Shown here: positions 24,327 to 36,555 of the stretch, piece by piece | Layout of the letters: every line of letters starts with the position of its first letter | How positions within the stretch are numbered: the stretch's first letter is position 1 | Origin: Elusimicrobiota bacterium | Lineage (GTDB): Bacteria; Elusimicrobiota; Elusimicrobia; UBA1565 | Direction of reading: 5' to 3' | Assembly: GCA_043827405.1 (NCBI GenBank) | Contig: JBDRPD010000060.1 | Coordinates: forward strand, 9,301-73,300 | Length of the DNA: 64,000 nucleotides | Translations under genes and position numbers: made by a program | The notes under the pieces: generated by a model | Told to the model about the DNA's origin: nothing | What the model saw: the letters and a program-made list of their open reading frames with translations, nothing else | The model's database searches: none

Positions 24327-26963
24327 ATGCCTTCCGTCGAGGACAAGCGCGGGGCCGGCAAAGGGGGCCCCACCCCGGTCATGAAGCAGTACCATGCCCT
24401 CAAGGCGGCATATCCGCATGCCGTCATGTTTTTCCGCCTCGGCGATTTCTATGAGCTTTTCGAAGAAGATGCCAAAATCGCGGCTCCCGTCATGGGAGTG
24501 GTGCTGACCCAGCGCGCCGGACTGCCGATGTGCGGCGTCCCCTATCACTCCTACACCAATTATCTGCGCAAACTGCTCGCGGCGGGCTTCAAGGTCGCGA
24601 TGGCTGAGCAGATGGAGGACCCGGCGAAAACCAAGGGTCTGGTCAAGCGGGCCGTTACGCGCGTTGTGACCCCGGGGACTTTGGTCGAAGACGAACTGCT
24701 CCAGGGATCCGCGACCAATTACCTGGTAGCCCTCGAGATAGACACCATCGGCTGGGGCATCGCCTGCGCCGAGGTCTCCACCGGCGAATTCTGGGCGACC
24801 CAGGCGCTCGACGACCACAACCATCTGCGGCTGTATTCCCTGCTGGCCAAGATCGATCCGGCCGAGCTTATTGCCCCGCGACGCGCGGTGGAGGAACTGC
24901 GGCTGAAGAATCTGCTCAAGTCTGGAACCGCGATCTCGGAATGGAAGCGGACGTCCTCGGAAACGCAGGTCCCGGAGCACTGGGACAGCCGGTCCATCTG
25001 GCGCAACCGCCAGCTCGCGCTCAAAGCCGCGCTGACCGCGCGCAGCTACATCGAGAGCACCCAGTCGCACCTCAAGGAAGTGCTTAAGCCAAGCTACCGG
25101 GAAGCGCGGCCGGAGATGCAGCTCAATGAGGCCGCCATTCGCACCCTCGAGCTCGTCGATTCGCAGACCGGCGGCCGCAAGCTGACACTGTGGGGCATCC
25201 TGGACCGCACGCTCACGCCGATGGGCAGCCGCCGGCTCAAACAGTGGATACTGCATCCGTCCACGGAGCTGCCCGAAATCGAGCGCCGCCTGCACTGCGT
25301 CGAAGAGCTGGCCGACAAGACCGACACCCGCGACAGCCTGGGCGGCCTGCTGGATGAAATCTCGGACCTGGAACGCGTAATCAACCGTATGGCAACGCGC
25401 TCGGCGGCACCGCGCGACCTGGCCGCCCTGCGCGACTCCCTGCTGCAGATCCACTCGCTGGAAAAGTGGCTGAAAGACGGTCAGTTCTTCTCCGGGCTCG
25501 CCGCAGTGACGGATGCGCTCAAGGAAGTAGCGGATCCTATTCGCAAAACACAATCCTTGCTCGATCGCTCCCTCGTCGACAACCCGCCCGCCAAGCTGTC
25601 CGATGGCGGCCTCTTCGCCGCCGGCTACGATCAGCGGCTGGATGAACTCCGCGCGATCAAAACGGACAGCCGGAGCGTGCTCAAGGAGCTCGAGACGCGG
25701 GAGCGGAAAGAAAGCGGCATCGCGTCGCTGCGCGTCGGATACAATTCCGTTTTCGGCTACTATATCGAAGTTACCAAGACCCATTCAGCCAAGGTCCCCG
25801 CCCGCTACACGCGCAAGCAGACGCTGACCAACGCCGAGCGCTATATCACCCCCGAGCTCAAGGAGCTCGAAACGCGCGTCCTCGGAGCCGAAGACAAGTT
25901 CCTGCGCCTCGAAGCGGAACTATTTGAGGACTTGCGCTCCAAGATTCTCGAGCATAACGGCGAGATCCGCCGCTTCGCGGAGATCGTTTCCGAGCTCGAT
26001 GTGATGCGCTCGCTCGCGGATGTCGCCGTCCACAACAACTACGTTAAGCCCGTGGTGGACCTTTCACACTGCTTTGAGATCGACGAGGGGCGCCATCCCG
26101 TCGTGGAGACCGTGCTGCCGGCCGGCACATTCGTCTCCAACGATCTGTCGGTCGACAGCGACGACTCACAGACCCTGATCCTCACCGGCCCCAACATGGG
26201 CGGGAAATCGGTCTTTCTCCGGCAGAACGCGCTGATAGCGATCATGGCGCAGATGGGAAGTTTTGTCCCCGCCAAGTCCGCGCGCATCGGCGTTGTCGAC
26301 AAGGTCCTTACCCGCATAGGCTCCCAGGATCAGCTGACCCGCGGCGAATCCACCTTTATGGTGGAGATGAAGGAGACCTCGCATATCCTCCAGGCGGCGA
26401 CCCTGCGCAGCCTGATCCTGCTCGACGAGGTCGGACGCGGCACTTCCACCTACGACGGCATCTCCATCGCCTGGGCGGTTATCGAGCACCTCAACCGGCT
26501 CGGCCTCGGCGGCGAGCGGGCCGAAAAAGCCGCGGGCCGCGGACCACGGACCCTGTTCGCCACCCATTACTTCGAGCTTACCGAACTTGCGGATCTCCTC
26601 AACGGCGTCAAGAACATCAGCGTCGAGGCGCGGGAATGGACCAACGCCGCCGGACGCACCGAGGTAATCTTTCTGCATAAGATATCGAAGGGCCCGGCCG
26701 ATCGGTCTTTCGGCATCCATGTGGCCGAGCTCGCGGGACTGCCGGAAGGGTGCCTGCGGCGCGCCCAGGAAATTCTGCACGGCCTGGAGAACGAATCCCG
26801 CACCGCATCACCAACCTCCGCGGCCAAGCCCGAATCACCGCAGCAGGACCTGCCGTTTTTCGACGAGCATCCGGTCCTGCATGATCTGCGGCTGCTGGAC
26901 GCCGACGCCCTCACCCCCATCGAAGCGCTTAAAAAGCTCTCCGGTTGGAAAAAGCAGCTTTAA
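24327..26963 (+). CDS. mutS: DNA mismatch repair protein MutS
   Basis: TPVMKQY, FRLGDFYELF, GPNMGGKS, STFMVEM, DEVGRGTSTYDG, FATHYFEL. Confidence 0.98.
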   Translation: MPSVEDKRGAGKGGPTPVMKQYHALKAAYPHAVMFFRLGDFYELFEEDAKIAAPVMGVVLTQRAGLPMCGVPYHSYTNYLRKLLAAGFKVAMAEQMEDPAKTKGLVKRAVTRVVTPGTLVEDELLQGSATNYLVALEIDTIGWGIACAEVSTGEFWATQALDDHNHLRLYSLLAKIDPAELIAPRRAVEELRLKNLLKSGTAISEWKRTSSETQVPEHWDSRSIWRNRQLALKAALTARSYIESTQSHLKEVLKPSYREARPEMQLNEAAIRTLELVDSQTGGRKLTLWGILDRTLTPMGSRRLKQWILHPSTELPEIERRLHCVEELADKTDTRDSLGGLLDEISDLERVINRMATRSAAPRDLAALRDSLLQIHSLEKWLKDGQFFSGLAAVTDALKEVADPIRKTQSLLDRSLVDNPPAKLSDGGLFAAGYDQRLDELRAIKTDSRSVLKELETRERKESGIASLRVGYNSVFGYYIEVTKTHSAKVPARYTRKQTLTNAERYITPELKELETRVLGAEDKFLRLEAELFEDLRSKILEHNGEIRRFAEIVSELDVMRSLADVAVHNNYVKPVVDLSHCFEIDEGRHPVVETVLPAGTFVSNDLSVDSDDSQTLILTGPNMGGKSVFLRQNALIAIMAQMGSFVPAKSARIGVVDKVLTRIGSQDQLTRGESTFMVEMKETSHILQAATLRSLILLDEVGRGTSTYDGISIAWAVIEHLNRLGLGGERAEKAAGRGPRTLFATHYFELTELADLLNGVKNISVEAREWTNAAGRTEVIFLHKISKGPADRSFGIHVAELAGLPEGCLRRAQEILHGLENESRTASPTSAAKPESPQQDLPFFDEHPVLHDLRLLDADALTPIEALKKLSGWKKQL

Positions 26964-28741
26964 TGCCGTCGCGGCTCCAGCCCCTGCCCGAAGACGTGGC
27001 CAGCCGCATTGCGGCCGGCGAAGTAATAGAACGGCCGGCCTCGGTTCTCAAAGAGCTTGTTGAAAACTCGCTCGACGCCGGCGCCAGCAAGATCGAAATC
27101 GAAATCAAGGGCGCGGGGTGCAAGCTCATCCGCGTCGCCGACGACGGCGACGGCGTGCCGCCGGAGGACTGCGCCCGGGCATTCGAGCGCCATACCACCA
27201 GCAAGATCCGCGCGCTCCAGGATCTGGAGAAGCTCTCCACCTTCGGCTTCCGCGGCGAAGCGCTGTTCTCCATCGCCGCGGTTTCCAAGACCACGCTCGC
27301 CAGCCGCGCCAAAGGAGAGCGCCGGGCCTGGCGCGTCGAATTCCGCGGCGGCAGGCTCCATAAAGAGCACGAGGCTCCCCCGGCCGCCGGCACGGCGATC
27401 GAGGTCCGCGACTTATTTTTCAACACTCCCGCCCGCGCCAAGTTTTTAAAATCCGACGCCACTGAGCGCAGCCACCTGGCACGCGTCGTTGAGGAGGCGG
27501 CGCTGGCCAATCCCGCCGTCGCCTTCACCTACTGCGCGGAAGGCAAGATAAAACTGCGCTGCGCGGCGCAAAAAAACGACGGCCGGAAGGCGCAGCAGCG
27601 CCGCGTCGCGGAAGTGCTCGGAGAGGAGTATGGCCGAGAGCTGCTGTGCGCCGAAGGCGGCGCCGGAGGCCTCACCGTCCGCGGGCTTTTTTCGCCGCCG
27701 GAGACCCTGCACGCCACCCGCGGCTTCCAGTACGTATTCGTCAATCGCCGGCCGGTGACCAACCGCACCGTCCAGCAGGCGCTGTACCGCGCCTATGAGC
27801 CGTTCCGCGGCCGGAATCGTCACCCGGCGGCGGTCTTGTTCATCGACGTCCCCTCCGCCGAGCTCGACGTCAACGTCCACCCGACAAAGCGGGAAGTCCG
27901 CTTCCGGCCCGCCGCCGCCGTCTACCAGGCCGTCACGCAGACGCTGTCGAAAGCGCTGCTGGAAGCGAGATCGATCCCGACCATCCAGACGGCCGCGGAA
28001 AATATCCGGTCAGCTTATCACGCCGCCGGCGAAGCCGGACGCTCGCGCGCCGAACGGCCGGTCGCCGAACAATCCTCATTCGTCCTGGAGGCACCCGCCG
28101 GCTACCCCGCCGCCAGGCCCCTGGGCCGGGAGCGCGTTTGGTACTCCGATGACATGCGCTACCTCGGCCAGATCGAACGCACCTATCTGCTCTTTGAGAC
28201 GGGAGGCGGACTGCTCATCATGGACCAGCACGCGGCCCAGGAGAAGGTGCTTTTCGAGCGCTACATCGCCGAGGTGGATTCCGGCAAGCTGCACGTGCAG
28301 GAACTTATGCTCCCGCTGGCCCTGGATCTCCCGGCCTCCGGCATCGAGAAAATCCTCGCCAAGAAGAAGCGCCTGCTCCGCGCCGGCTTCACGGTAGAGG
28401 CGCTGGGCAAGACGACGCTGCACATCACCAGCACGCCGGCGCTCTTCGCCAAAGCGCACGACATCAAGGAGATGGTCCAGCGGCTCCTCGACAGCCTGCT
28501 TTCGCCCTCCTCGGCGGCGGCCGACGTGCGCTACGACGCCACGGCGACCATCGCCTGCAAAGCGGCGGTCAAAGCGCACGACGCCCTGTCGGAACGAGAA
28601 GCACGCGCGCTGGTCAAGGACCTGCGCGCATGCGCGGACGGGACCTGCTGTCCGCACGGCCGCCCGACCATGCTCCACCTCGACCGCTTCGAACTGGCGC
28701 GTCGTTTCGGCCGCTCCGGCGCGCCGCCGCTGGACGCCTAG
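26963..28741 (+). CDS. mutL: DNA mismatch repair endonuclease MutL
   Basis: IAAGEVIERP, GFRGEAL, DVNVHPTKREV, DQHAAQEK, ACK, CPHGRP; TAATG overlap with mutS. Confidence 0.97.
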   Translation: MPSRLQPLPEDVASRIAAGEVIERPASVLKELVENSLDAGASKIEIEIKGAGCKLIRVADDGDGVPPEDCARAFERHTTSKIRALQDLEKLSTFGFRGEALFSIAAVSKTTLASRAKGERRAWRVEFRGGRLHKEHEAPPAAGTAIEVRDLFFNTPARAKFLKSDATERSHLARVVEEAALANPAVAFTYCAEGKIKLRCAAQKNDGRKAQQRRVAEVLGEEYGRELLCAEGGAGGLTVRGLFSPPETLHATRGFQYVFVNRRPVTNRTVQQALYRAYEPFRGRNRHPAAVLFIDVPSAELDVNVHPTKREVRFRPAAAVYQAVTQTLSKALLEARSIPTIQTAAENIRSAYHAAGEAGRSRAERPVAEQSSFVLEAPAGYPAARPLGRERVWYSDDMRYLGQIERTYLLFETGGGLLIMDQHAAQEKVLFERYIAEVDSGKLHVQELMLPLALDLPASGIEKILAKKKRLLRAGFTVEALGKTTLHITSTPALFAKAHDIKEMVQRLLDSLLSPSSAAADVRYDATATIACKAAVKAHDALSEREARALVKDLRACADGTCCPHGRPTMLHLDRFELARRFGRSGAPPLDA

Positions 28742-28767
28742 CTTTCTCCCGCCGCGACGGACAAGCG

Positions 28768-28820
28768 GAAAATTTTTTGTAAAAAATAGGTCTTGACGTC
28801 CGGGGTTTTGGGGCTATACT
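28768..28820 (+). promoter_or_regulatory. Strong sigma70 promoter with an UP-like element and no downstream ORF
   Basis: AT tract 28769-28788, TTGACG (28793-28798), 16 nt, TATACT (28815-28820). Confidence 0.75.
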
Positions 28821-28824
28821 AAGA

Positions 28825-28926
28825 GTACCGCCGAGTAGGTGCCTGCAGTAAACATTCGGCGGTGGACTTGAGGGCGGGACAACGGTCGATATAAAACGAC
28901 GCCTGTTGTCACGCCCTCAACTTTTT
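28825..28926 (+). ncRNA. Candidate ~100-nt small RNA (two hairpins, intrinsic terminator)
   Basis: Hairpin 1 ACCGCCGAGT/ATTCGGCGGT (28827-28863); hairpin 2 TTGAGGGCG-GACAAC...GTTGTC-CGCCCTCAA (28868-28920) then CTTTTT; own promoter. Confidence 0.65.
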
Positions 28927-28936
28927 GCGGCAGAAA

Positions 28937-29413
28937 TTACGGGCCGAAGAAGAAGCCGGCGACCGCGCCGAGCACGCCGCCGATAGCAGCGCCTACCGGT
29001 CCGCCGAGAAGAAAGCCCAGACCGGCCCCGGCCAGAGCGCCGCCGGCCGCCCACCATAATCTCTTACCGCTCTTCTGCGTCTTGAGCTTATTATCCTTGG
29101 TCAGCGGATTGGGCGGTTCCTTAATGTTGCCCTTGTCGGGATCCCCGATAAAGAGGTCCGCCGTTGGGGTCTCCTGCGTACCCTTCACGGGCACAGATAC
29201 CAGCGGCGGCGACACCAAGGTACTGCCCTTGAGCCCCGCGGTATCCCAGCCTTCTCCTGACCGGCCACGAGCCTGGCTGTCGTCGGCCGCACGGGCTCCA
29301 TACCAGCTTTGGTCGGCGATACGCTGCAGATCGCTGCGCAGATTCGCCGTGGAGGCATGTCCCCATACAGCCGCTACGATAAGAATGAGCGCCGCGTGTT
29401 TCAACGCTTTCAT
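28937..29413 (-). CDS. Secreted/membrane protein with a C-terminal glycine zipper
   Basis: Signal peptide; C-terminal GGALAGAGLGFLLGGPVGAAIGGVLGAVAG; TATAAT 7 nt before the ATG. Confidence 0.8.
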   Translation of the reverse strand: MKALKHAALILIVAAVWGHASTANLRSDLQRIADQSWYGARAADDSQARGRSGEGWDTAGLKGSTLVSPPLVSVPVKGTQETPTADLFIGDPDKGNIKEPPNPLTKDNKLKTQKSGKRLWWAAGGALAGAGLGFLLGGPVGAAIGGVLGAVAGFFFGP

Positions 29414-29534
29414 TACAAAAATTATACCGGGAGACCACCGAATGGATGGGGGACCATGGACCTAAAAAACCGGCGTAATCCGGCCTATGCGCAAAGGGCC
29501 GGAGGTCCCGCGCAGAAACATCTATTTTTTAAGG

Positions 29535-29582
29535 GAAAATTAAGAGGGCACCAGAGCTTTCCTCTTTAGCTCTCGTGCCCCC
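29535..29582 (-). terminator. Terminator-like hairpin closing the GU-rich RNA
   Basis: Minus strand GGGGGCAC-G-AGAGCT...AGCTCT-G-GTGCCCTC followed by TTAATTTT. Confidence 0.6.
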
Positions 29583-29693
29583 AGTACGGCGAACGACCGC
29601 GACGTACGATGAACAGTCACCGACGGGTACAAACCTCCCGCCGGGCCCTCGGCGGGTACGTCGAACGACAACGAAACGAACGGCCACGCACGG

Positions 29694-29816
29694 CCACAAC
29701 CCGGCAAAGGCCACAAACGACCACGACCTGGCAACGGCCACGAACGGCCACAACCACGACCCGGCAACGACCACGAACGGCCACGACCCGGCAACAACCA
29801 CGAACAGCCACGACCC
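29694..29816. repeat. Imperfect 27-nt tandem repeat (4 full copies plus partials)
   Basis: CCACGACCCGGCAACGACCACGAACGG-like units at 29694, 29721, 29754 and 29781 (6-nt insert at 29748-29753). Confidence 0.92.
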
Positions 29817-29855
29817 ACGACGGAGACGACGAAGAACACGACGACCTACGGTGTT

Positions 29856-29883
29856 AGTATAAGCCGGTAACAGGATATGTCAA
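29856..29883 (-). promoter_or_regulatory. Near-consensus sigma70 promoter driving the GU-rich RNA
   Basis: Minus strand TTGACA (29883-29878), 16 nt, TATACT (29861-29856). Confidence 0.82.
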
Positions 29884-29897
29884 GGCCCAAAAACGAC

Positions 29898-30617
29898 TCA
29901 TTTCAGCCGCCAAACCGTATGCCATTGCGGGATGAGCCGAGCATGCTTGAGCCGCGCGCGTGCCTGAACGAGAAACTTGACGGCACGCTCCGGCTCGACG
30001 GGCAGACAGCGCTTTCCGGGAAATCTTGCGCTGACAACAGGCGTCGCCGGCTGCAAAACCAGCGGCATGGACGGCGCATTCGCCTCCATTAAGCGAATCA
30101 CCTTCAGCCATTCCGCGTCTGTCGTGCTCCGCGTCAGCACGACCTTGGCGAAGGCGCGCCGACCGGCCGCGCGCAGGAATTCCGCATGCGCTTTCCACAG
30201 GCTTTTACCGACGGCGGAGGGCAGCTTCAAGTCGACCGCGATCATGTCGAGCCACGGCAGCAGCCTCCGCAAAACGCCGACATGCACGCCGTTGGTCTCC
30301 AAGTAGTTCTTGAGCCCAAGCCGCCGCACCCGCGGCAAAACGGAATGGAGAAAATCCCCGCAGCGCAGCGGCTCCCCGCCCGTCCAGGCGACCGCCGCAT
30401 GCCGCCGCCGGCGATTATGGTCCTCCAGCACCGCGCACAGGCGCCGTGCGTCCCATTCTTCGCCGGAGTCCGCCGGCAGCGCCTTTGCCTCATCGCAGTA
30501 GTCGCAGCGCAGACCGCAGCCGCCGAAGCGAACAAATATCTGCCGCTCGCCAAGCCGCAATCCCTCGCCTTGCAGCGATGAAAATATCTCGCAGATCCGG
30601 GCGTGATCGCGCCTCAT
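29898..30617 (-). CDS. queE: 7-carboxy-7-deazaguanine synthase QueE (radical SAM)
   Basis: EIFSSLQGEG...QIFVRFGGCGLRCDYCD, TGGEP, ETNG, IPQ.H; adjacent to queC. Confidence 0.9.
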   Translation of the reverse strand: MRRDHARICEIFSSLQGEGLRLGERQIFVRFGGCGLRCDYCDEAKALPADSGEEWDARRLCAVLEDHNRRRRHAAVAWTGGEPLRCGDFLHSVLPRVRRLGLKNYLETNGVHVGVLRRLLPWLDMIAVDLKLPSAVGKSLWKAHAEFLRAAGRRAFAKVVLTRSTTDAEWLKVIRLMEANAPSMPLVLQPATPVVSARFPGKRCLPVEPERAVKFLVQARARLKHARLIPQWHTVWRLK

Positions 30618-31342
30618 CGCGCCGGGTCCAGCGCGCCGGCTTTCTCGAAGCCCTTCACGCGCAGCTTGCAGGAATCGCAGCGGCCGCATGGCCGTCGACC
30701 TCCGCGGTAGCATGACCAGGTGAGCTCCAGCGGCACCCGAAGCCTAAGCGCCAAACGGACGATGGCGGCCTTATCCTTGTGAATGAGAGGCGTCGCAATG
30801 CGAATACGTTTGCCCTGCGCGCCGCGCCGCGTACCCGTCCGCGCCACGCTTTGAAAAGCTTGGTAAAACGCCGGCCGGCAGTCCGGGTAGCCGCTGTAGT
30901 CGAGGCTATTGGCGCCGACCACGACCATCTCCGCGCCCACGGCATCGGCGAGCGACAAGCCCAACGCCGTGAAGACGGCATTGCGGCCCGGGACATAGGT
31001 CGCGGGAATGCCGCCGCGCCCGATGCGCGACAGCGGGACATCGGGCAGCGGCCGCCGCGTATCGGTAAGCATATTGCCGCGCAGCCAAGGCAGACGCAGA
31101 CGCAGCGTCGTAAACCGCGCGCCGGCCGCCGTCGCGACGCGGCGAGCGGAACGCAGCTCGCGGCTGTGCCGCTGCCCATAGTCGACCGCCAGGGCCTCCA
31201 GACGGCAGCCCCGCTCCTTCGCCCAATAAAGGCAGGTCGCGGAATCCAGGCCGCCCGAAAGAAGGACCACGGCGCGCTTGCCTTTCTCCTTTCGCGCCGC
31301 CCCCGAGGGGATAAGCGCTGAGGGGGCGGCACGGCGGCTCAC
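30614..31342 (-). CDS. queC: 7-cyano-7-deazaguanine synthase QueC
   Basis: LSGGLDS, YGQRH, TYVPGRN, SGYPDCR, TWSCY...CGRCDSC. Confidence 0.96.
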   Translation of the reverse strand: MSRRAAPSALIPSGAARKEKGKRAVVLLSGGLDSATCLYWAKERGCRLEALAVDYGQRHSRELRSARRVATAAGARFTTLRLRLPWLRGNMLTDTRRPLPDVPLSRIGRGGIPATYVPGRNAVFTALGLSLADAVGAEMVVVGANSLDYSGYPDCRPAFYQAFQSVARTGTRRGAQGKRIRIATPLIHKDKAAIVRLALRLRVPLELTWSCYRGGRRPCGRCDSCKLRVKGFEKAGALDPAR

Positions 31343-31782
31343 CGCAGAACCTCGATCAATAAAGCGCATGTTATTTTCTGCGCCCCCGGTTGGGACGACT
31401 CCCGCGGCCCGGCGACATTGAGCACCGCCGGCCGCTCCCGCTCCAGAAAGGTTCGGACTTTCTGCGCGGCCTGCGCCTCCCGCGGATCAACGACGCAGAA
31501 AGGCCGGCCGTGACGCTTGGCTAATTCCAGCGTCAGCAGGGTACCGCCCGAGGGCTCGCCGGCGGAGAGGATTAGAGTGGCGTCGGCGTCCACGACATTG
31601 CGCTCCGTGCGTTCCGGATACTGCGCGGATACGCCTTCCGTGACCGGATAACGCTCCGGCACGCGCCCATCCTCGGCGCGACGCCCGCGCGGCACGGTTC
31701 CGCCGCAGGACAAACCCAACTCCAGCGCCGCATCCAAAGCCCCGCGATCCACGCCGGTCTGCGCGCCGGAGATAATCTTCAT
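31339..31782 (-). CDS. Putative molybdenum-carrier (SLOG-fold, YpsA-like) protein
   Basis: KIISGAQTGVDRGALDAA, RTERNVVDADAT, GGT.LT, LNVAGPRES. Confidence 0.88.
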   Translation of the reverse strand: MKIISGAQTGVDRGALDAALELGLSCGGTVPRGRRAEDGRVPERYPVTEGVSAQYPERTERNVVDADATLILSAGEPSGGTLLTLELAKRHGRPFCVVDPREAQAAQKVRTFLERERPAVLNVAGPRESSQPGAQKITCALLIEVLR

Positions 31783-31798
31783 GGAGGGCCTCCGCCGA

Positions 31799-32188
31799 TC
31801 AGGCGCCGGGATCCCGGGCAACGGCGTCGATCTCGACCAGCGCATCCTTCGGCAGCGCGCTGACCTCCACCGCGGCGCGCGCCGGCGCAGGCGCGGGAAA
31901 CGCCGACGCGTATACCTCGTTCATCCGGGCGAACTCTCCCAAATCCCGCATATAAACCGTAGTCTTGACGACATCCCCCATCCCGGCGCCGGCGGCGCGC
32001 AGCACGGCCTCGATATTGCGCAGGACCTGCCGCGTCTGCTCCGGCACGCCGCCGTCGACCATTTGCCCCGTCTCCGGCGCCAGCGGGAGCTGCCCGGAAA
32101 GGAATATCCAGCCGCCGGCGCGCACCGCCTGCGAATACGGCCCGATCGCCGCCGGTGCGTCCTGGGTCTCAATCATATCCTTGGCCAT
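31799..32188 (-). CDS. ridA: RidA (YjgF/YER057c/UK114) enamine deaminase
   Basis: APAAIGPYSQA, SGQLP, VVKTTVY, PARAAVEV..LP..ALVEID. Confidence 0.93.
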   Translation of the reverse strand: MAKDMIETQDAPAAIGPYSQAVRAGGWIFLSGQLPLAPETGQMVDGGVPEQTRQVLRNIEAVLRAAGAGMGDVVKTTVYMRDLGEFARMNEVYASAFPAPAPARAAVEVSALPKDALVEIDAVARDPGA

Positions 32189-33588
32189 CACAGCTCCCCC
32201 CATTCGTCGACGTCCGCGTTCTCGGCGTCACGGTAAAAACGCGCGGTGCAGATTCCTTTCAGCCCCTGGACGACCGCGAACAGCACTCCCGTCAGAACAG
32301 CCCACGACCATAGACCGCAGCCAAACAGCACGACCGCCAGCGGCGCCGTCCATTGAACCGGCTGACCCCGGGCAATCAGCGAACAGAAAAAAGCCAGGAC
32401 CGGCGCCGCGCATAAAAGCGCGAAGCGCAGATCAAACACTCCCAATCCCAAATGCGTGCGTTCCGCTTGCGCCGTCCCCAGCAAGTCGACGCTTCTCCTC
32501 AATGCCGGCACTACGCCCATATCCTCACAGGCCATGACGCTGGCAGCGAGATAGCCGCTGCGGAAAACTCCGCTCTCGAAGATGCGCTGAAACAGGCCCC
32601 CGGCTCGCCCCGCCCTGCCGCGCCGCAGGATGAGCCGGTAGACAAGACCCAGCGGCAGGAGCGCCGCGAACACAACAAACCATAACGCTATGACGCCCGG
32701 CACGAACGGCAGGCAAGCCGCCGCCGCATTGGCCTCCGGACGCCGCGCCAATGCCGCGGCGAGAAGCGCTCCCGGCAGGAAGGAACAGATGCCCACCACG
32801 AAGTAGGCTTTCACCCAGCCGCCGGAGACGTCGTAGAGCGGGCGGCCGAGCGTCAACGCGAGAATATCAAAGCCGTAGCCCGCGATGACCGCCGCACAGC
32901 ACAGCCACACAAACACGGTGACGGAAAAAAACAGTTTATGCCGCAGCAAAACTTCCCACGCGGCGCGCGCCCGCGCGCCCGCGCCGCCCTGCAGGTCAAA
33001 AACCGGCAGTCCCAGGACCGCCCAAGCCGTCACGACCGCCGGCAGGATTAAGAGCCATAGCCAGCGCGCCGTTCGTGCGAGGCGCCCGAAGAGCTTCGTT
33101 CGCGCCATTTTCACTCCGGAGGGCGGCGACGGAGGGCGGCTCGCCGGATTATGCTGTCGCTGCAAAGAGCGCTTGAGCGTCTCCGCCCCCTCCTTCACCG
33201 CCGGACTCGGCGCGAGAATGCCTCTTGCGGCCAAAGCATCCAGCCGGGCGAGCAGCTGATCAGGGACATCGCGCTGCCCCCAGGAGAAATAATCCGCCAG
33301 CGCGCGCATGGCGGGCGCCCGCACCCCGCCGTTCTCTTCCTCCTGGGCAACCGCGATCAAAGCGTCCAGCGCCGCGCCGTCGTCATGCTCGTTAAGCCGC
33401 ACGCCCAGGGCATGCACGATCCAGAAGCGCTGATCCGAATCCCGCGTCCGGCTGTAGAGCTCGGCGAGCTTCGCGGAAGCCGCGACCGATGGGTCGTCCT
33501 CCAGGCGGCGCAGCCCGTCAGCGCGCGCCGCGGGAACAGCGCTCAGCCAGAAGCCCAGGCCGAACAGCAGAAAGACGAGTCGGCTCAC
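32188..33588 (-). CDS. Hypothetical polytopic membrane protein with an N-terminal HEAT-like exported domain
   Basis: Signal peptide, helical-repeat-like segment, about 7 hydrophobic segments; translationally coupled on both sides. Confidence 0.75.
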   Translation of the reverse strand: MSRLVFLLFGLGFWLSAVPAARADGLRRLEDDPSVAASAKLAELYSRTRDSDQRFWIVHALGVRLNEHDDGAALDALIAVAQEEENGGVRAPAMRALADYFSWGQRDVPDQLLARLDALAARGILAPSPAVKEGAETLKRSLQRQHNPASRPPSPPSGVKMARTKLFGRLARTARWLWLLILPAVVTAWAVLGLPVFDLQGGAGARARAAWEVLLRHKLFFSVTVFVWLCCAAVIAGYGFDILALTLGRPLYDVSGGWVKAYFVVGICSFLPGALLAAALARRPEANAAAACLPFVPGVIALWFVVFAALLPLGLVYRLILRRGRAGRAGGLFQRIFESGVFRSGYLAASVMACEDMGVVPALRRSVDLLGTAQAERTHLGLGVFDLRFALLCAAPVLAFFCSLIARGQPVQWTAPLAVVLFGCGLWSWAVLTGVLFAVVQGLKGICTARFYRDAENADVDEWGEL

Positions 33589-34733
33589 ATCCCCCCTTGA
33601 ATCGCGTCCAACAGCAGCTCGTTAGTTGAGTATTTCCGCACCATCTCCACCACCACCTTGGTGGCTTCCAGGTCTGAAAGGCTCGCAAGTTTGCGCCGCA
33701 GCTTCCATACGCCGTCGAGCGTCTTCTCCGGCAGGAGCAGTTCTTCCCTGCGCGTTCCGGAACTTTTGACGTGTATCGCAGGAAACACCCGCTGCTCCGC
33801 CGCCGGCCGCGAGAGCACCAGCTCCATATTGCCGGTCCCTTTAAACTCCTGAAAGATCACTTCATCCATGCGGCTGTTGGTATCGATAAGGATCGTGGCC
33901 ATAATCGTAATCGATCCCCCCTCCTCCAGCTTGCGCGCACAGCCGAAAAAGCGCCGGGGCAGCTCCATCGCGCGCGAATCCAAACCGCCGGACAGCGTGC
34001 GCGTGCCTCCCGTCGCGGTATTATGCGCCCGCGCCAGACGCGTAAGCGAATCCAGCACAATAAGGACATCAACCCCGGCGACGGACTGTTCGACCGCCAG
34101 CTGATATACTTTATCCGCGGTGCTGATATGGGATTCGAAACCCTGGTCGCTTGAGGACGCGTGCACTTCGGCCTGGACCGCGCGACGGAAGTCGGTGACC
34201 TCTTCCGGCCGCTCATCGACCAGCAGGCAGTAGACTTTCATCTTCGGCTCGGCGCCGGTGACGGCGTTGCATATCTCTTTGAGGATCGTCGTCTTGCCGG
34301 CCTTGGGCGGCGATACGATCAATCCGCGCTGCCCCTTGCCCACCGGGGAGAGCAGATCCACCACCCTCATCGCCGCAGACGTCGGGCCGTTTTCCATGCG
34401 AATCCACTCAAACGGCGCGACCGGCGTCCTATCCAAAAACTGCTTCTCTGCCTCCGTGCGCTTCAGCGGCGCGATCTGCCGGTCGCCGCGGCCTTGGCCG
34501 CCGCGCCGCGGATATCCGCCGCGCCCGCCGTACCCGCCGCGCCCGCCCGAGCCACCGCGCCCGCCGGAACCACCGCGCCCGCCCTGGCCGCCATGTCCGC
34601 CCTGACCGCCTGGACCGCCGCGCTCCCGCTGTCCTCCGCCGCCTTGTCCGGAAAGTGATCCCTGGTCGTTATTTCCGTGGGCCGGTCCTCGGGAACCCGA
34701 GCGGCGCCGACGGCGCCTTGGTTTATTTCTCAT
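33585..34733 (-). CDS. rho: Transcription termination factor Rho, atypical (no OB-fold; GGR-rich N-terminus)
   Basis: [62 protein letters not shown]. Confidence 0.93.
34513..34620 (-). repeat. Gly-Gly-X coding repeat ([15 protein letters not shown]) in the Rho N-terminus
   Basis: Imperfect 9/18-nt repeats encoding [36 protein letters not shown]. Confidence 0.85.
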
Positions 34734-34734
34734 A

Positions 34735-36555
34735 TTACTCTCCTGTTAGCGTCCACTTCGGACGTCTCCAACTCCGTCTAAAATCCTCGAGCGTGGAAGC
34801 GGCCGCCTCTTGCCTGCCGTCCATCTTGTCGTAAAACAGTATCCAATCCAACTGCTGATTTTTCGTGCCGAAATCGGAATCGTACTTTCGCGCCAGCGCA
34901 TTGGAGGAAAAAGACCAGCGCCCGTTTATGTCGGACAAGGGAAAAACGAGCCCTTTCGCCCCGCGACCGGAATAGTACGCCGTATAGACCAGCTCGGCGC
35001 CGGAAACGGCCGCAGCGGACTCTACATCGTACTGAAAATCATATGGCTTGCGCAGGAGCGGCAGCGCCCTCGCCAGCGCCTCTCCCTTAACGTCGGTGCC
35101 GGCCCTCGGCCGCAGGACCGCGAACGCATCCGCAGCGGCGAAGCGCGCGAGCGTTTCCAGGCGGACTCCGTCCTCATCGGCGTGCAACACGGAAAGAGGA
35201 TCCGGCGGGGGCGCCTTCTTCTCGACTATCACCGGCTCGGTACTCTCCGCTATTTTCCACGGATTTAAATTACTGAACAGCTTCCCCGCCTGTTTCCGCC
35301 AACTGCGCAGCCGCTGGGGAGCTTCCGGCGCGGGGCCCGCCGCCTGCGCATAGGCTTTCTCCACTTCTTCACGCGTGCGCTTGGAGTGGAAAAAAGCGGC
35401 CTGCTGTTGGCGCGTTCCGACGTATATCCCGGCATGATGCCAGTAGCCGGCCAGCCCGATCTCCCCGAGGAATCTGTCCCGCCGAACGAGCAGTATATCC
35501 CCGGGCTGCAGGAGTGGCTCCATCTCCCGCACCTGGGATTGCGTGATCCAGACCTCCGGGCGGGCCTGCGTCGACGCGTCAACCCGAAACCAATGCCGCA
35601 GCGTATCCACCGCGTACGCCGCCCGCGTACTAATCGTCGCTGTCGACCAATCCGGCTGCGGCGGCAAAAACGGCAGCCGCTCGGGATTCGGCGCATCGAA
35701 TTCCGCCGTCCAGGCGCGGGCGATGGAGCGAACGGGGAAAAAATCGCGGCGCTCGCTGCGGCGCAGCATATCCAGAGCGCGTTGGCGCGAATGCGGGCGG
35801 AAGCTCCCGGATATCGGCAGTTGACGCAGATCGCTGCTGCGCAGCCGCGCCCATTCACCGCGGCTGGAGCCCAAGACCATTTCCAAAGCCTGCGATTTAC
35901 CCACCTGTACGTAGTAGGAATGCATTGCGGAGAGCTCGGAGCGGAAGCTTGCCCCCCGGAAGCGCTGCTCGACGGCGCTGTAGCCGCCCGCGCGCACCCC
36001 CAAAGACGGAATCTCCTCATCAAAAAGACGCACCAACGCGGAATCATTCGCGCACAAGGCGCTCCATTCACGGCTAAAGCGCGCCTGGGCCAAAAAGGCG
36101 GCGTATGCTACCAGAAAAGCGACCCGCTGGGTACGCGGTTCCGACAACGCATGGAACTCGCGGTAGCGGTCGGACAACGCATCCAGCGCCAGCATATAGT
36201 CGACTCCCCGATGCCAGCTGTTAAGCGCCGTGTCGCGATATTCCTCGTACAATACCCCCCCCTCCCTCGGCTGCGGGGGAAAGATCTGCGGTCGTCCCCG
36301 GGCGAAGCGCAGCGTGTCGAGCAGGCCTTCACGCCAGCGGTCCACGGCGATTAAGTCATCCTCCACCCGATCCCAAAACCGTACCTCCAGCGGGTGCAGC
36401 TCCTTGACGCTGCTGGCGCGCGAACCCGCCGCAGCATCGGCGTCCGACGCCCCCTGCCAGGAAACCCCCTCAGGGATGCCGAGATCATTCGTTTCCTGCC
36501 GCGCGTAGGCGGCGGGTAAAGCGAAGATTCCGAGCATGATCAGGAGCTTTCCCAC
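34735..36555 (-). CDS. Secreted YiiX/YebB-like permuted papain-like (NlpC/P60) protein
   Basis: LQPGDILL.R, GYWHHAGIYVG, VLRP, KPYDF.YD...ELVY.AY. Confidence 0.8.
   Translation of the reverse strand: MGKLLIMLGIFALPAAYARQETNDLGIPEGVSWQGASDADAAAGSRASSVKELHPLEVRFWDRVEDDLIAVDRWREGLLDTLRFARGRPQIFPPQPREGGVLYEEYRDTALNSWHRGVDYMLALDALSDRYREFHALSEPRTQRVAFLVAYAAFLAQARFSREWSALCANDSALVRLFDEEIPSLGVRAGGYSAVEQRFRGASFRSELSAMHSYYVQVGKSQALEMVLGSSRGEWARLRSSDLRQLPISGSFRPHSRQRALDMLRRSERRDFFPVRSIARAWTAEFDAPNPERLPFLPPQPDWSTATISTRAAYAVDTLRHWFRVDASTQARPEVWITQSQVREMEPLLQPGDILLVRRDRFLGEIGLAGYWHHAGIYVGTRQQQAAFFHSKRTREEVEKAYAQAAGPAPEAPQRLRSWRKQAGKLFSNLNPWKIAESTEPVIVEKKAPPPDPLSVLHADEDGVRLETLARFAAADAFAVLRPRAGTDVKGEALARALPLLRKPYDFQYDVESAAAVSGAELVYTAYYSGRGAKGLVFPLSDINGRWSFSSNALARKYDSDFGTKNQQLDWILFYDKMDGRQEAAASTLEDFRRSWRRPKWTLTGE

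Follow-up and report, generated by a model that had tools for sequence, protein, structure and literature searches.

What is the repetitive, adenine-poor tract that lies just behind a queE-like gene in the genome of an Elusimicrobiota bacterium? The tract (29535-29883) was found in a 64,000-nt stretch of contig JBDRPD010000060.1 (assembly GCA_043827405.1), the whole of which is called the window here, and an earlier note on this stretch had read it as a new stand-alone RNA acting as a sponge or scaffold. Our analysis showed that the element, named type A here, is a real, apparently new non-coding RNA (ncRNA) family of one Elusimicrobiota order, with a function that can be proposed only. The stand-alone RNA is borne out by a conserved promoter and hairpin, covariation, frame-breaking indels and contigs in RNA libraries, while the sponge or scaffold role remains a reasonable inference, for which a partner was not found.

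The type A locus and its homologues

The minus-strand promoter TTGACA-16-TATACT at 29883-29856 matched the consensus at 11 of 12 positions and was the best in the interval 27000-32000, in which four promoter-like sites were found versus 0.6 ± 0.7 in shuffled sequences. Its strength is not unique, since the genome contained 54 sites with at least 11/12 consensus matches. The earlier description of a terminal hairpin followed by a U-rich tail (29582-29536) was likewise confirmed; a simple terminator scan did not list this hairpin. The features of the locus are as follows.

29856..29888, minus strand: sigma70-type promoter with an RGGYC extension before the -35 box; a promoter precedes 14/14 type A hairpins
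29536..29850, minus strand: type A ncRNA of about 315 nt, with ends predicted from the promoter and the U tail
29662..29846, minus strand: adenine-free (see below for its single A), unstructured body of repeated (G)YCGU units, from composition, motif counts and folding
29699..29812, minus strand: 27-nt repeat in four imperfect copies, which begin at 29812, 29785, 29752 and 29725; an expressed variant has another number of copies (repeat joint of contig X2)
29600..29663, minus strand: local 8-bp helix closing the 3' domain, private to the window's genome by folding and homologue comparison
29637..29656, minus strand: middle hairpin CCCGCY/GGCGGG with a self-complementary loop hexamer (29648-29643), a candidate kissing or dimer site
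29544..29582, minus strand: conserved terminal hairpin of 8 bp, a G-G mismatch (29574/29552), 6 bp and a loop with an invariant GAGGA (29564-29560), from aligned homologues
29536..29543, minus strand: U-rich tail, a predicted intrinsic terminator; U tails also occur in homologues

When 61 genomes were searched with the DNA sequence, 10 gave matches, most of them in the final hairpin, and two of the matches (L009 in G055 and L011 in G028) were dropped as apparently coding sequence. A covariance model of the terminal hairpin, R2, found one locus each in 14 of the 61 genomes, distributed as 11/16 in the same family, 2/6 in a second family and 0/38 in a third, plus the window's own genome. All 14 loci had a TTGACR-16/17-WATACT promoter 89-517 nt upstream. 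Two further divergent copies were recognized by synteny behind queE among 20 genomes, and four more on metagenome contigs, giving 20 homologues (16 genomes and 4 contigs). Contigs of some R2-negative genomes end just behind queE, so that absence of type A is not shown there. In a phylum-wide sample, R2 matched 4 of 151 genomes, and the sole match outside the order (G195, 25 bits, no promoter) was rejected. Pattern scans gave R2 scores above 59 bits in 6/19 metagenome loci (L111 and L117 omitted as duplicates) and in 5/29 genome loci, these five repeating known loci.

The alignment of 19 terminal hairpins showed that 98.1% of the cells pair and that 11 of the 14 base pairs change on both sides. 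None of 500 shuffles matched this covariation, and slid registers did not come close either; the structure was drawn from the same 19 sequences, which favours it in this test. The promoter, the low adenine content and the covarying 3' hairpin thus recur across one order, as the search of relatives proposed in the earlier note was meant to reveal, and a neutral variable-number tandem repeat without a gene, the case held against the proposal there, is refuted by the conserved promoter and hairpin and by the hairpin's covariation. In the window no Rfam family reached its gathering score, and the type A locus together with 13 homologous loci gave sub-threshold chance matches only. No description of the RNA was found in the literature searched; the supplements of large RNA-motif surveys were outside its scope, and a mention there as an unnamed motif is possible.

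A short coding repeat, rich in Val/Ala if read from the minus strand or in Thr/His if read from the plus strand, would account for the stop-free frames on both strands, for repeat periods in the window that are multiples of three (27, 33 and 60) and for a weak period-3 signal in the bodies. Such open frames follow trivially from the scarcity of A or T, and the indels do not respect a frame: five type A pairs had 41 indels, 9 of them divisible by three, and fifteen pairs of the related type B RNA (described below) had 65, of which 6 were, and a 93%-identical pair differed by three 1-nt indels. Since most indels between related RNAs would shift a frame, type A is non-coding, and the coding repeat is scarcely credible. 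Within the window, 19 of the 25 pairwise differences among the four repeat copies were C/U and the differences fell on the three frame positions as 10/6/9, in agreement with the earlier reading.

Five RNA runs from two sediment studies contained 12-13% of the sampled words of the stretch, and four of these were compared over 26900-34800. In all four, a contig lay within 29564-29785 with a depth of 11-37 and with 2-9 differences in 139-198 nt; one RNA contig carried an additional block of repeats, and three had G at the position of the tract's only A. The bin 29804-30067, itself included in the query used for the search, remained without cover, the neighbouring genes gave at most short low-depth pieces, and the bins of a nearby Rho gene gave short pieces that continued unlike the window. 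The RNA libraries may contain DNA, and the cover of the type A body gives moderate support for its expression. Cover of type B was absent in three runs and had a mean depth of 0.5 over its bin in the fourth, which is uninformative for an RNA of 100 nt.

The 3' domain, the repeat body and the type B RNA

The GAGGA loop of the 3' hairpin, missed in the earlier note, is the most conserved part of type A, being invariant in 19/19 aligned hairpins, and the G-G mismatch was present in 16 of the 19 rows. A fixed loop sequence is not required by a plain terminator. Upstream of it, the 8-bp helix (29663-29656/29607-29600) around a CCCGCC/GGCGGG hairpin folded as the earlier note described but was found in only 1 of 20 homologues. 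The middle hairpin itself was present in 14 of the 20, and in 7 of those 14 the loop hexamer was palindromic with three different sequences (GGGCCC, GGAUCC and AGGCCU), compared with a chance of about 0.06 per loop. The palindromic loop is a lead for kissing dimerisation and not proof of it, as the sequences are related.

The plus strand of 29662-29846 contained a single T in 185 nt. Among all runs of the 4.33-Mb genome with no more than one A, just one is longer (202 nt, on C91), and the 27-nt period was recovered as 4.8 copies at 77%. The motif YGUGG, which had been singled out before, occurred 12 times in the window RNA, but it was frequent in only 2 of 18 homologues and absent from 5. In the 18 type A bodies, compared with single-base shuffles (one body ends at its middle hairpin), CGU was found in 18/18 and was enriched in total (299 vs 93 expected), as was GUCGU (96 vs 9 expected), GCCGU was strongly enriched too, and CU was avoided (80 vs 240 expected). 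The repeat motif common to the family is therefore (G)YCGU, in the forms CGU, GUCGU and GCCGU, and not YGUGG. The window body is the densest YCGU tract of its genome, with 24 copies versus 14 for the runner-up. GG was depleted across the family (395 vs 568 expected), which makes the G-quadruplexes that the earlier note considered less likely; the maximum G4Hunter-type score was 0.76 in the window body and ranged from 0.68 to 1.36 across the 20 homologues.

The shortest type A RNA had 98 nt and the longest 551 nt, of which 132 are unassembled bases; adenine content ranged from 3.8 to 17.7% (median 8.4%), and the repeat units varied between genera. The bodies of homologues folded no better than shuffles (z from -1.6 to +4.7), and the same was true of the full-length window RNA (z -1.39). 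The bodies in G022, G028 and contig L114 (loci L013, L016 and L114) contained at least one extra hairpin unit unseen in the window's family. No long antisense target was found in the window's own genome, the best outside match being 15 nt (E 1.0).

This large length variation had escaped the earlier note, as had a related RNA, type B, 600 nt away, which faces type A across a membrane-protein gene.

28788..28820, plus strand: type B promoter TTGACG-16-TATACT, which resembles that of type A (28793-28820), from the promoter scan
28826..28926, plus strand: type B ncRNA of about 100 nt with a 5' helix, a terminal hairpin (28870-28918) and a U tail, from alignment and model

The terminal hairpin of type B has a lower stem like that of type A and a 1x4 or 0x3 internal loop; in the window, the loop is 1x4 and the tip is a 4-bp GUCG/CGAC helix. 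In 28 aligned rows, 94.6% of the cells pair and 16 of the 18 pairs change on both sides. Of the 101 genomes of the order, 74 were matched by the type B model (R3), and in 70 the match had an E value below 1e-6. Eight weak R3 matches lay outside the order, and the four inspected were rejected, three lying inside one coding gene and one being a plain terminator. In type B RNAs of the third family, two helices close a long body that is rich in GUCG and poor in adenine. One genus carries type B in several copies, and in some of these the body is nearly absent. The type A model scored some type B hairpins weakly (best E 5e-4), and the two RNAs probably share a common ancestor. A loose type B pattern matched about as often as its reversed control and was used solely to choose loci; in viral sequences the type B pattern scan gave no loci, and the type A pattern gave one locus without an R2 score. 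The window's genome has a second type B copy at G000:C25:61400-61500 (minus strand). Divergent from this copy, a 97-aa Arg/Lys-rich open frame without a Pfam match was seen at L221:1699-1992 (plus strand).

Genomic surroundings and known RNA systems

The genes on either side of type A are the following.

28937..29413, minus strand: gene for a 158-aa glycine-zipper-like membrane protein between both RNAs, with a weak C19orf12-like match below the cut-off
29898..30713, minus strand: queE-like radical SAM gene upstream of type A, given for context

The upstream neighbours comprise this queE-like gene, queC, a RidA-like gene and a short Rho, and the downstream neighbours the small membrane-protein gene, mutL and mutS. 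The TATAAT ahead of the gene at 29413, noted before, was present; 7 nt separate it from the ATG downstream, with which the membrane-protein gene begins (29413-29426, minus strand), which suggests a leaderless mRNA. The gene downstream of type A encoded a membrane protein in 8 of 13 neighbourhoods and was different or convergent in the others; type A was directed at the 3' end of the queE operon in G001 and G015 and directly faced type B in G008. A cis-acting leader or riboswitch was rejected, as no downstream gene in the same direction is fixed across genomes. The queE-mutL interval in relatives (L037-L048, L058-L077) appeared to be a hot spot of insertion and rearrangement, and several contigs stop right behind queE.

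The extended promoter class RGGYCTTGACR-16/17-WATACT was present in 97 of the order's 101 genomes, with 0 matches for the reversed control, and being order-wide it is not specific to the type A and type B RNAs. It also precedes mraZ-like genes and c-di-GMP-I riboswitches, and a conserved hairpin element was observed behind such promoters after or in place of the c-di-GMP-I riboswitch (L082, L083, L104, L226, L308, L313, L314), with no separate Rfam match in the loci scanned. As regards genomes with neither RNA, no third RNA subtype was found in 41 further promoter regions, 5 of which were already-known type B loci.

The sponge RNAs CsrB and RsmZ carry many GGA motifs in hairpin loops, and CrcZ carries A-rich motifs. 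Type A resembles CsrB/CsrC/RsmZ and CrcZ in its own strong promoter, short repeated motifs, intrinsic terminator, paralogues and poor primary-sequence conservation, and the GGA in its terminal loop is reminiscent of the CsrB type. In contrast to these RNAs, it has (G)YCGU in an adenine-poor tract instead of GGA or A-rich motifs. Searches for partners and host RNAs covered five genomes each, the set differing between searches. CsrA (PF02599) was found in 0/5 genomes, with 3/14 controls positive, and Hfq (PF17209) and the TROVE domain of Ro60 (PF05731) in 0/5 each. A stand-alone promoter and terminator, with predicted ends, were found for type A, and many GGA-bearing loops (GGA lies in the terminal loop alone) and, in the five genomes, a host CsrA were not, so that type A may be called CsrB-like at most by analogy, its membership failing on motif and host protein. 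It does not belong with CrcZ and the Hfq-dependent RNAs either, with Hfq not found in the five genomes and an adenine-poor body. A bacterial Y RNA was rejected on the same basis, as Ro60 was not found in the five genomes. In type III antitoxin arrays, the repeats and a terminator are followed by a conserved toxin RNase gene; this identity was rejected, as the gene downstream of type A is mostly that of a membrane protein and is otherwise different or convergent. No tRNA or tmRNA was found in the window, and the tmRNA and RNase P RNA genes lie on other contigs of the genome, which removes both identities. Cold-shock proteins were present in 5/5 genomes and RRM proteins in 3/5. The adjacent short Rho (33585-34733, minus strand) begins with an RGG-rich repeat and has no N-terminal RNA-binding domain; C3 encodes a full canonical Rho, and two Rho-like matches were seen in the majority of the order's genomes.

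Like the RNA (4.5S) of the signal recognition particle (SRP), type A is a small hairpin RNA with its own strong promoter, but no match to RF00169 was found in the genomes searched or at the type A locus (RF01854 was covered only by the all-family Rfam scans), and the Ffh M domain was found in 0/5 genomes. SRP loss in Elusimicrobia has been reported (PMC7987157, PMC4779614) and agrees with these negatives. The 6S RNA (RF00013) gave no match in 5/5 genomes, and RNase Y, sought as a landmark for a hidden 6S gene, was not found in five. The Ffh M domain, SRP RNA and 6S RNA were undetected together in G000, G001, G002, G007 and G017. According to PMC11077062, 6S RNA has about 180 nt and is conserved in length and structure, 6S, Ms1 and CoRP are abundant stand-alone RNA-polymerase-binding RNAs of 100-500 nt, and CoRP is restricted to one lineage with conserved synteny. 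Type A resembles them as an apparently abundant stand-alone RNA and CoRP in its single lineage, in a host where 6S was undetected, and differs from what is described there by its variable length, the lack of a long duplex with a central bubble and the lack of an RF00013 match. FopS sRNAs, described in PMC12205990 as repressing mRNAs by pairing and as acting with RbpB in Bacteroides, are similarly a paralogous family in a lineage with a non-classical RNA-binding protein; unlike FopS as presented there, a target of type A and type B is not established, and RRM proteins occurred in only three of the five genomes.

A GC-rich hairpin, a candidate cis element of the cell-division (dcw) operon, was also found between rsmH and ftsL (G000:C24:35731-35768, minus strand; loci L245-L304). 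It has a covarying stem of 11-13 bp and a near-invariant (A/U)CUCGGC loop, occurs in 1-12 tandem copies order-wide, and gave only sub-threshold chance matches to Rfam in seven dcw loci. A small open frame of about 50 codons was seen by eye in many genomes between rsmH (ending at 35920) and this hairpin (G000:C24; L245-L264); it has a conserved aromatic and basic C-terminal stretch and also occurs in a genus without the hairpin.

Possible functions of the type A RNA

We propose, with a probability of roughly 45%, that type A is an abundant lineage-specific decoy or scaffold RNA that binds a putative protein partner. This reading fits best because an invariant loop stands on a covarying stem, the unpaired body is motif-biased, the apparent abundance is high and no long antisense target was found. 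A strong housekeeping-type promoter drives a short non-coding transcript with the conserved hairpin at its end and a single-stranded body of (G)YCGU units. In this proposal, the hairpin would both terminate transcription and display its fixed GAGGA loop for recognition by a specific RNA-binding protein. Many low-affinity sites, changed in number by slippage, would be offered by the body, and the loss of adenine would prevent A-U pairing in the body and remove AUG codons. The middle hairpin may dimerise the RNA via its palindromic loop in about half of the homologues having this hairpin. The RNA would then titrate or assemble a protein other than CsrA, Hfq or Ro60.

Several observations weigh against the decoy or scaffold. 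The adenine content reached 13-18% in 6 of 20 homologues, and the body was as short as 55 nt in type A and 5 nt in type B copies; therefore, multivalency is not essential. The protein partner was not found among the candidates: no RRM protein was found in the RNA-bearing G007, and the short Rho was rejected, as it appears order-wide and showed no co-occurrence signal with the RNA. The RNA evidence consists of contigs without strand or ends, from runs that were selected with this stretch.

The same length variation bears on the main rival reading, namely that the working unit is the terminal hairpin of about 50 nt alone and that the GU-rich body is a tolerated linker, sized by slippage and loosely kept unpaired. 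This is rather unlikely, though compatible with part of the picture: it accommodates the range of 98-551 nt, a 95%-identical pair differing by a 119-nt deletion, type B copies in which the promoter region and the hairpin are 5-6 nt apart, and repeat units that differ from genus to genus. Against it, adenine is scarce and the CGU/GUCG bias is present both in the type A bodies of two families and in a third family's long type B bodies; together with the strong avoidance of CU, this is a convergence not expected from pure drift. An RNA-polymerase-binding RNA that replaces 6S in the manner of Ms1 or CoRP seems improbable. It would suit the missing 6S match in 5/5 genomes, an abundant stand-alone RNA and the helix-bubble-helix that closes the body of the long type B forms, but the type A body has no long duplex, the closing stem of type B has only 8 bp with one covarying pair among four sequences, and the span of 98-551 nt is at odds with the conserved length and structure of 6S (PMC11077062).

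The rsmH-ftsL hairpin offers another candidate target. Type A and type B might pair via GCCGAG/GYCG with its CUCGGC loops, or titrate a factor that reads these loops, and thereby tune read-through into ftsL, which we consider quite doubtful. In the window's genome, type B is perfectly complementary to the hairpin over 16 nt, and the hairpin occurred in 25/25 RNA-bearing genomes of the 40 examined (one by eye only and one with a variant loop); in the 15 genomes in which no RNA was found it was intact in 4, altered in 7, lacking in 3 and cut off in 1, counts in which kin are not independent. The binding free-energy change (ddG) of type A, -4.5 kcal/mol, was reached by 1 of 60 shuffles. Predicted net binding of type B was weak, with 17 of 60 shuffles reaching its ddG of -2.8 and 19 of 60 that of -2.7, the loop changes in family f2 without matching changes in type B, and GCCGAG is absent from 14 of the 20 type A RNAs. 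If the pairing or titration did hold, which is a distant prospect, the two paralogous RNAs and the rsmH-ftsL array would form one undescribed RNA-based circuit for the control of cell division in this order. Expandable, possibly dimerising repeat RNAs would then, on this speculative view, titrate the reader of an expandable array of 1-12 copies or pair with the array, and the conjectured circuit would belong to bacteria whose searched genomes yielded no Hfq, CsrA, Ro60, SRP or 6S.

The decoy or scaffold reading concerns an RNA family of two members that is apparently uncatalogued and probably highly expressed. The family is conserved across a bacterial order, and in the genomes of its phylum that were searched neither the usual small-RNA proteins nor SRP were found. 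A body that varies roughly five-fold in length yet keeps one motif bias, an invariant loop and a possible kissing loop all point to an RNA-binding protein. With the covariance models, a natural minimal version of the hairpin alone and a candidate target region, this partner is directly testable.
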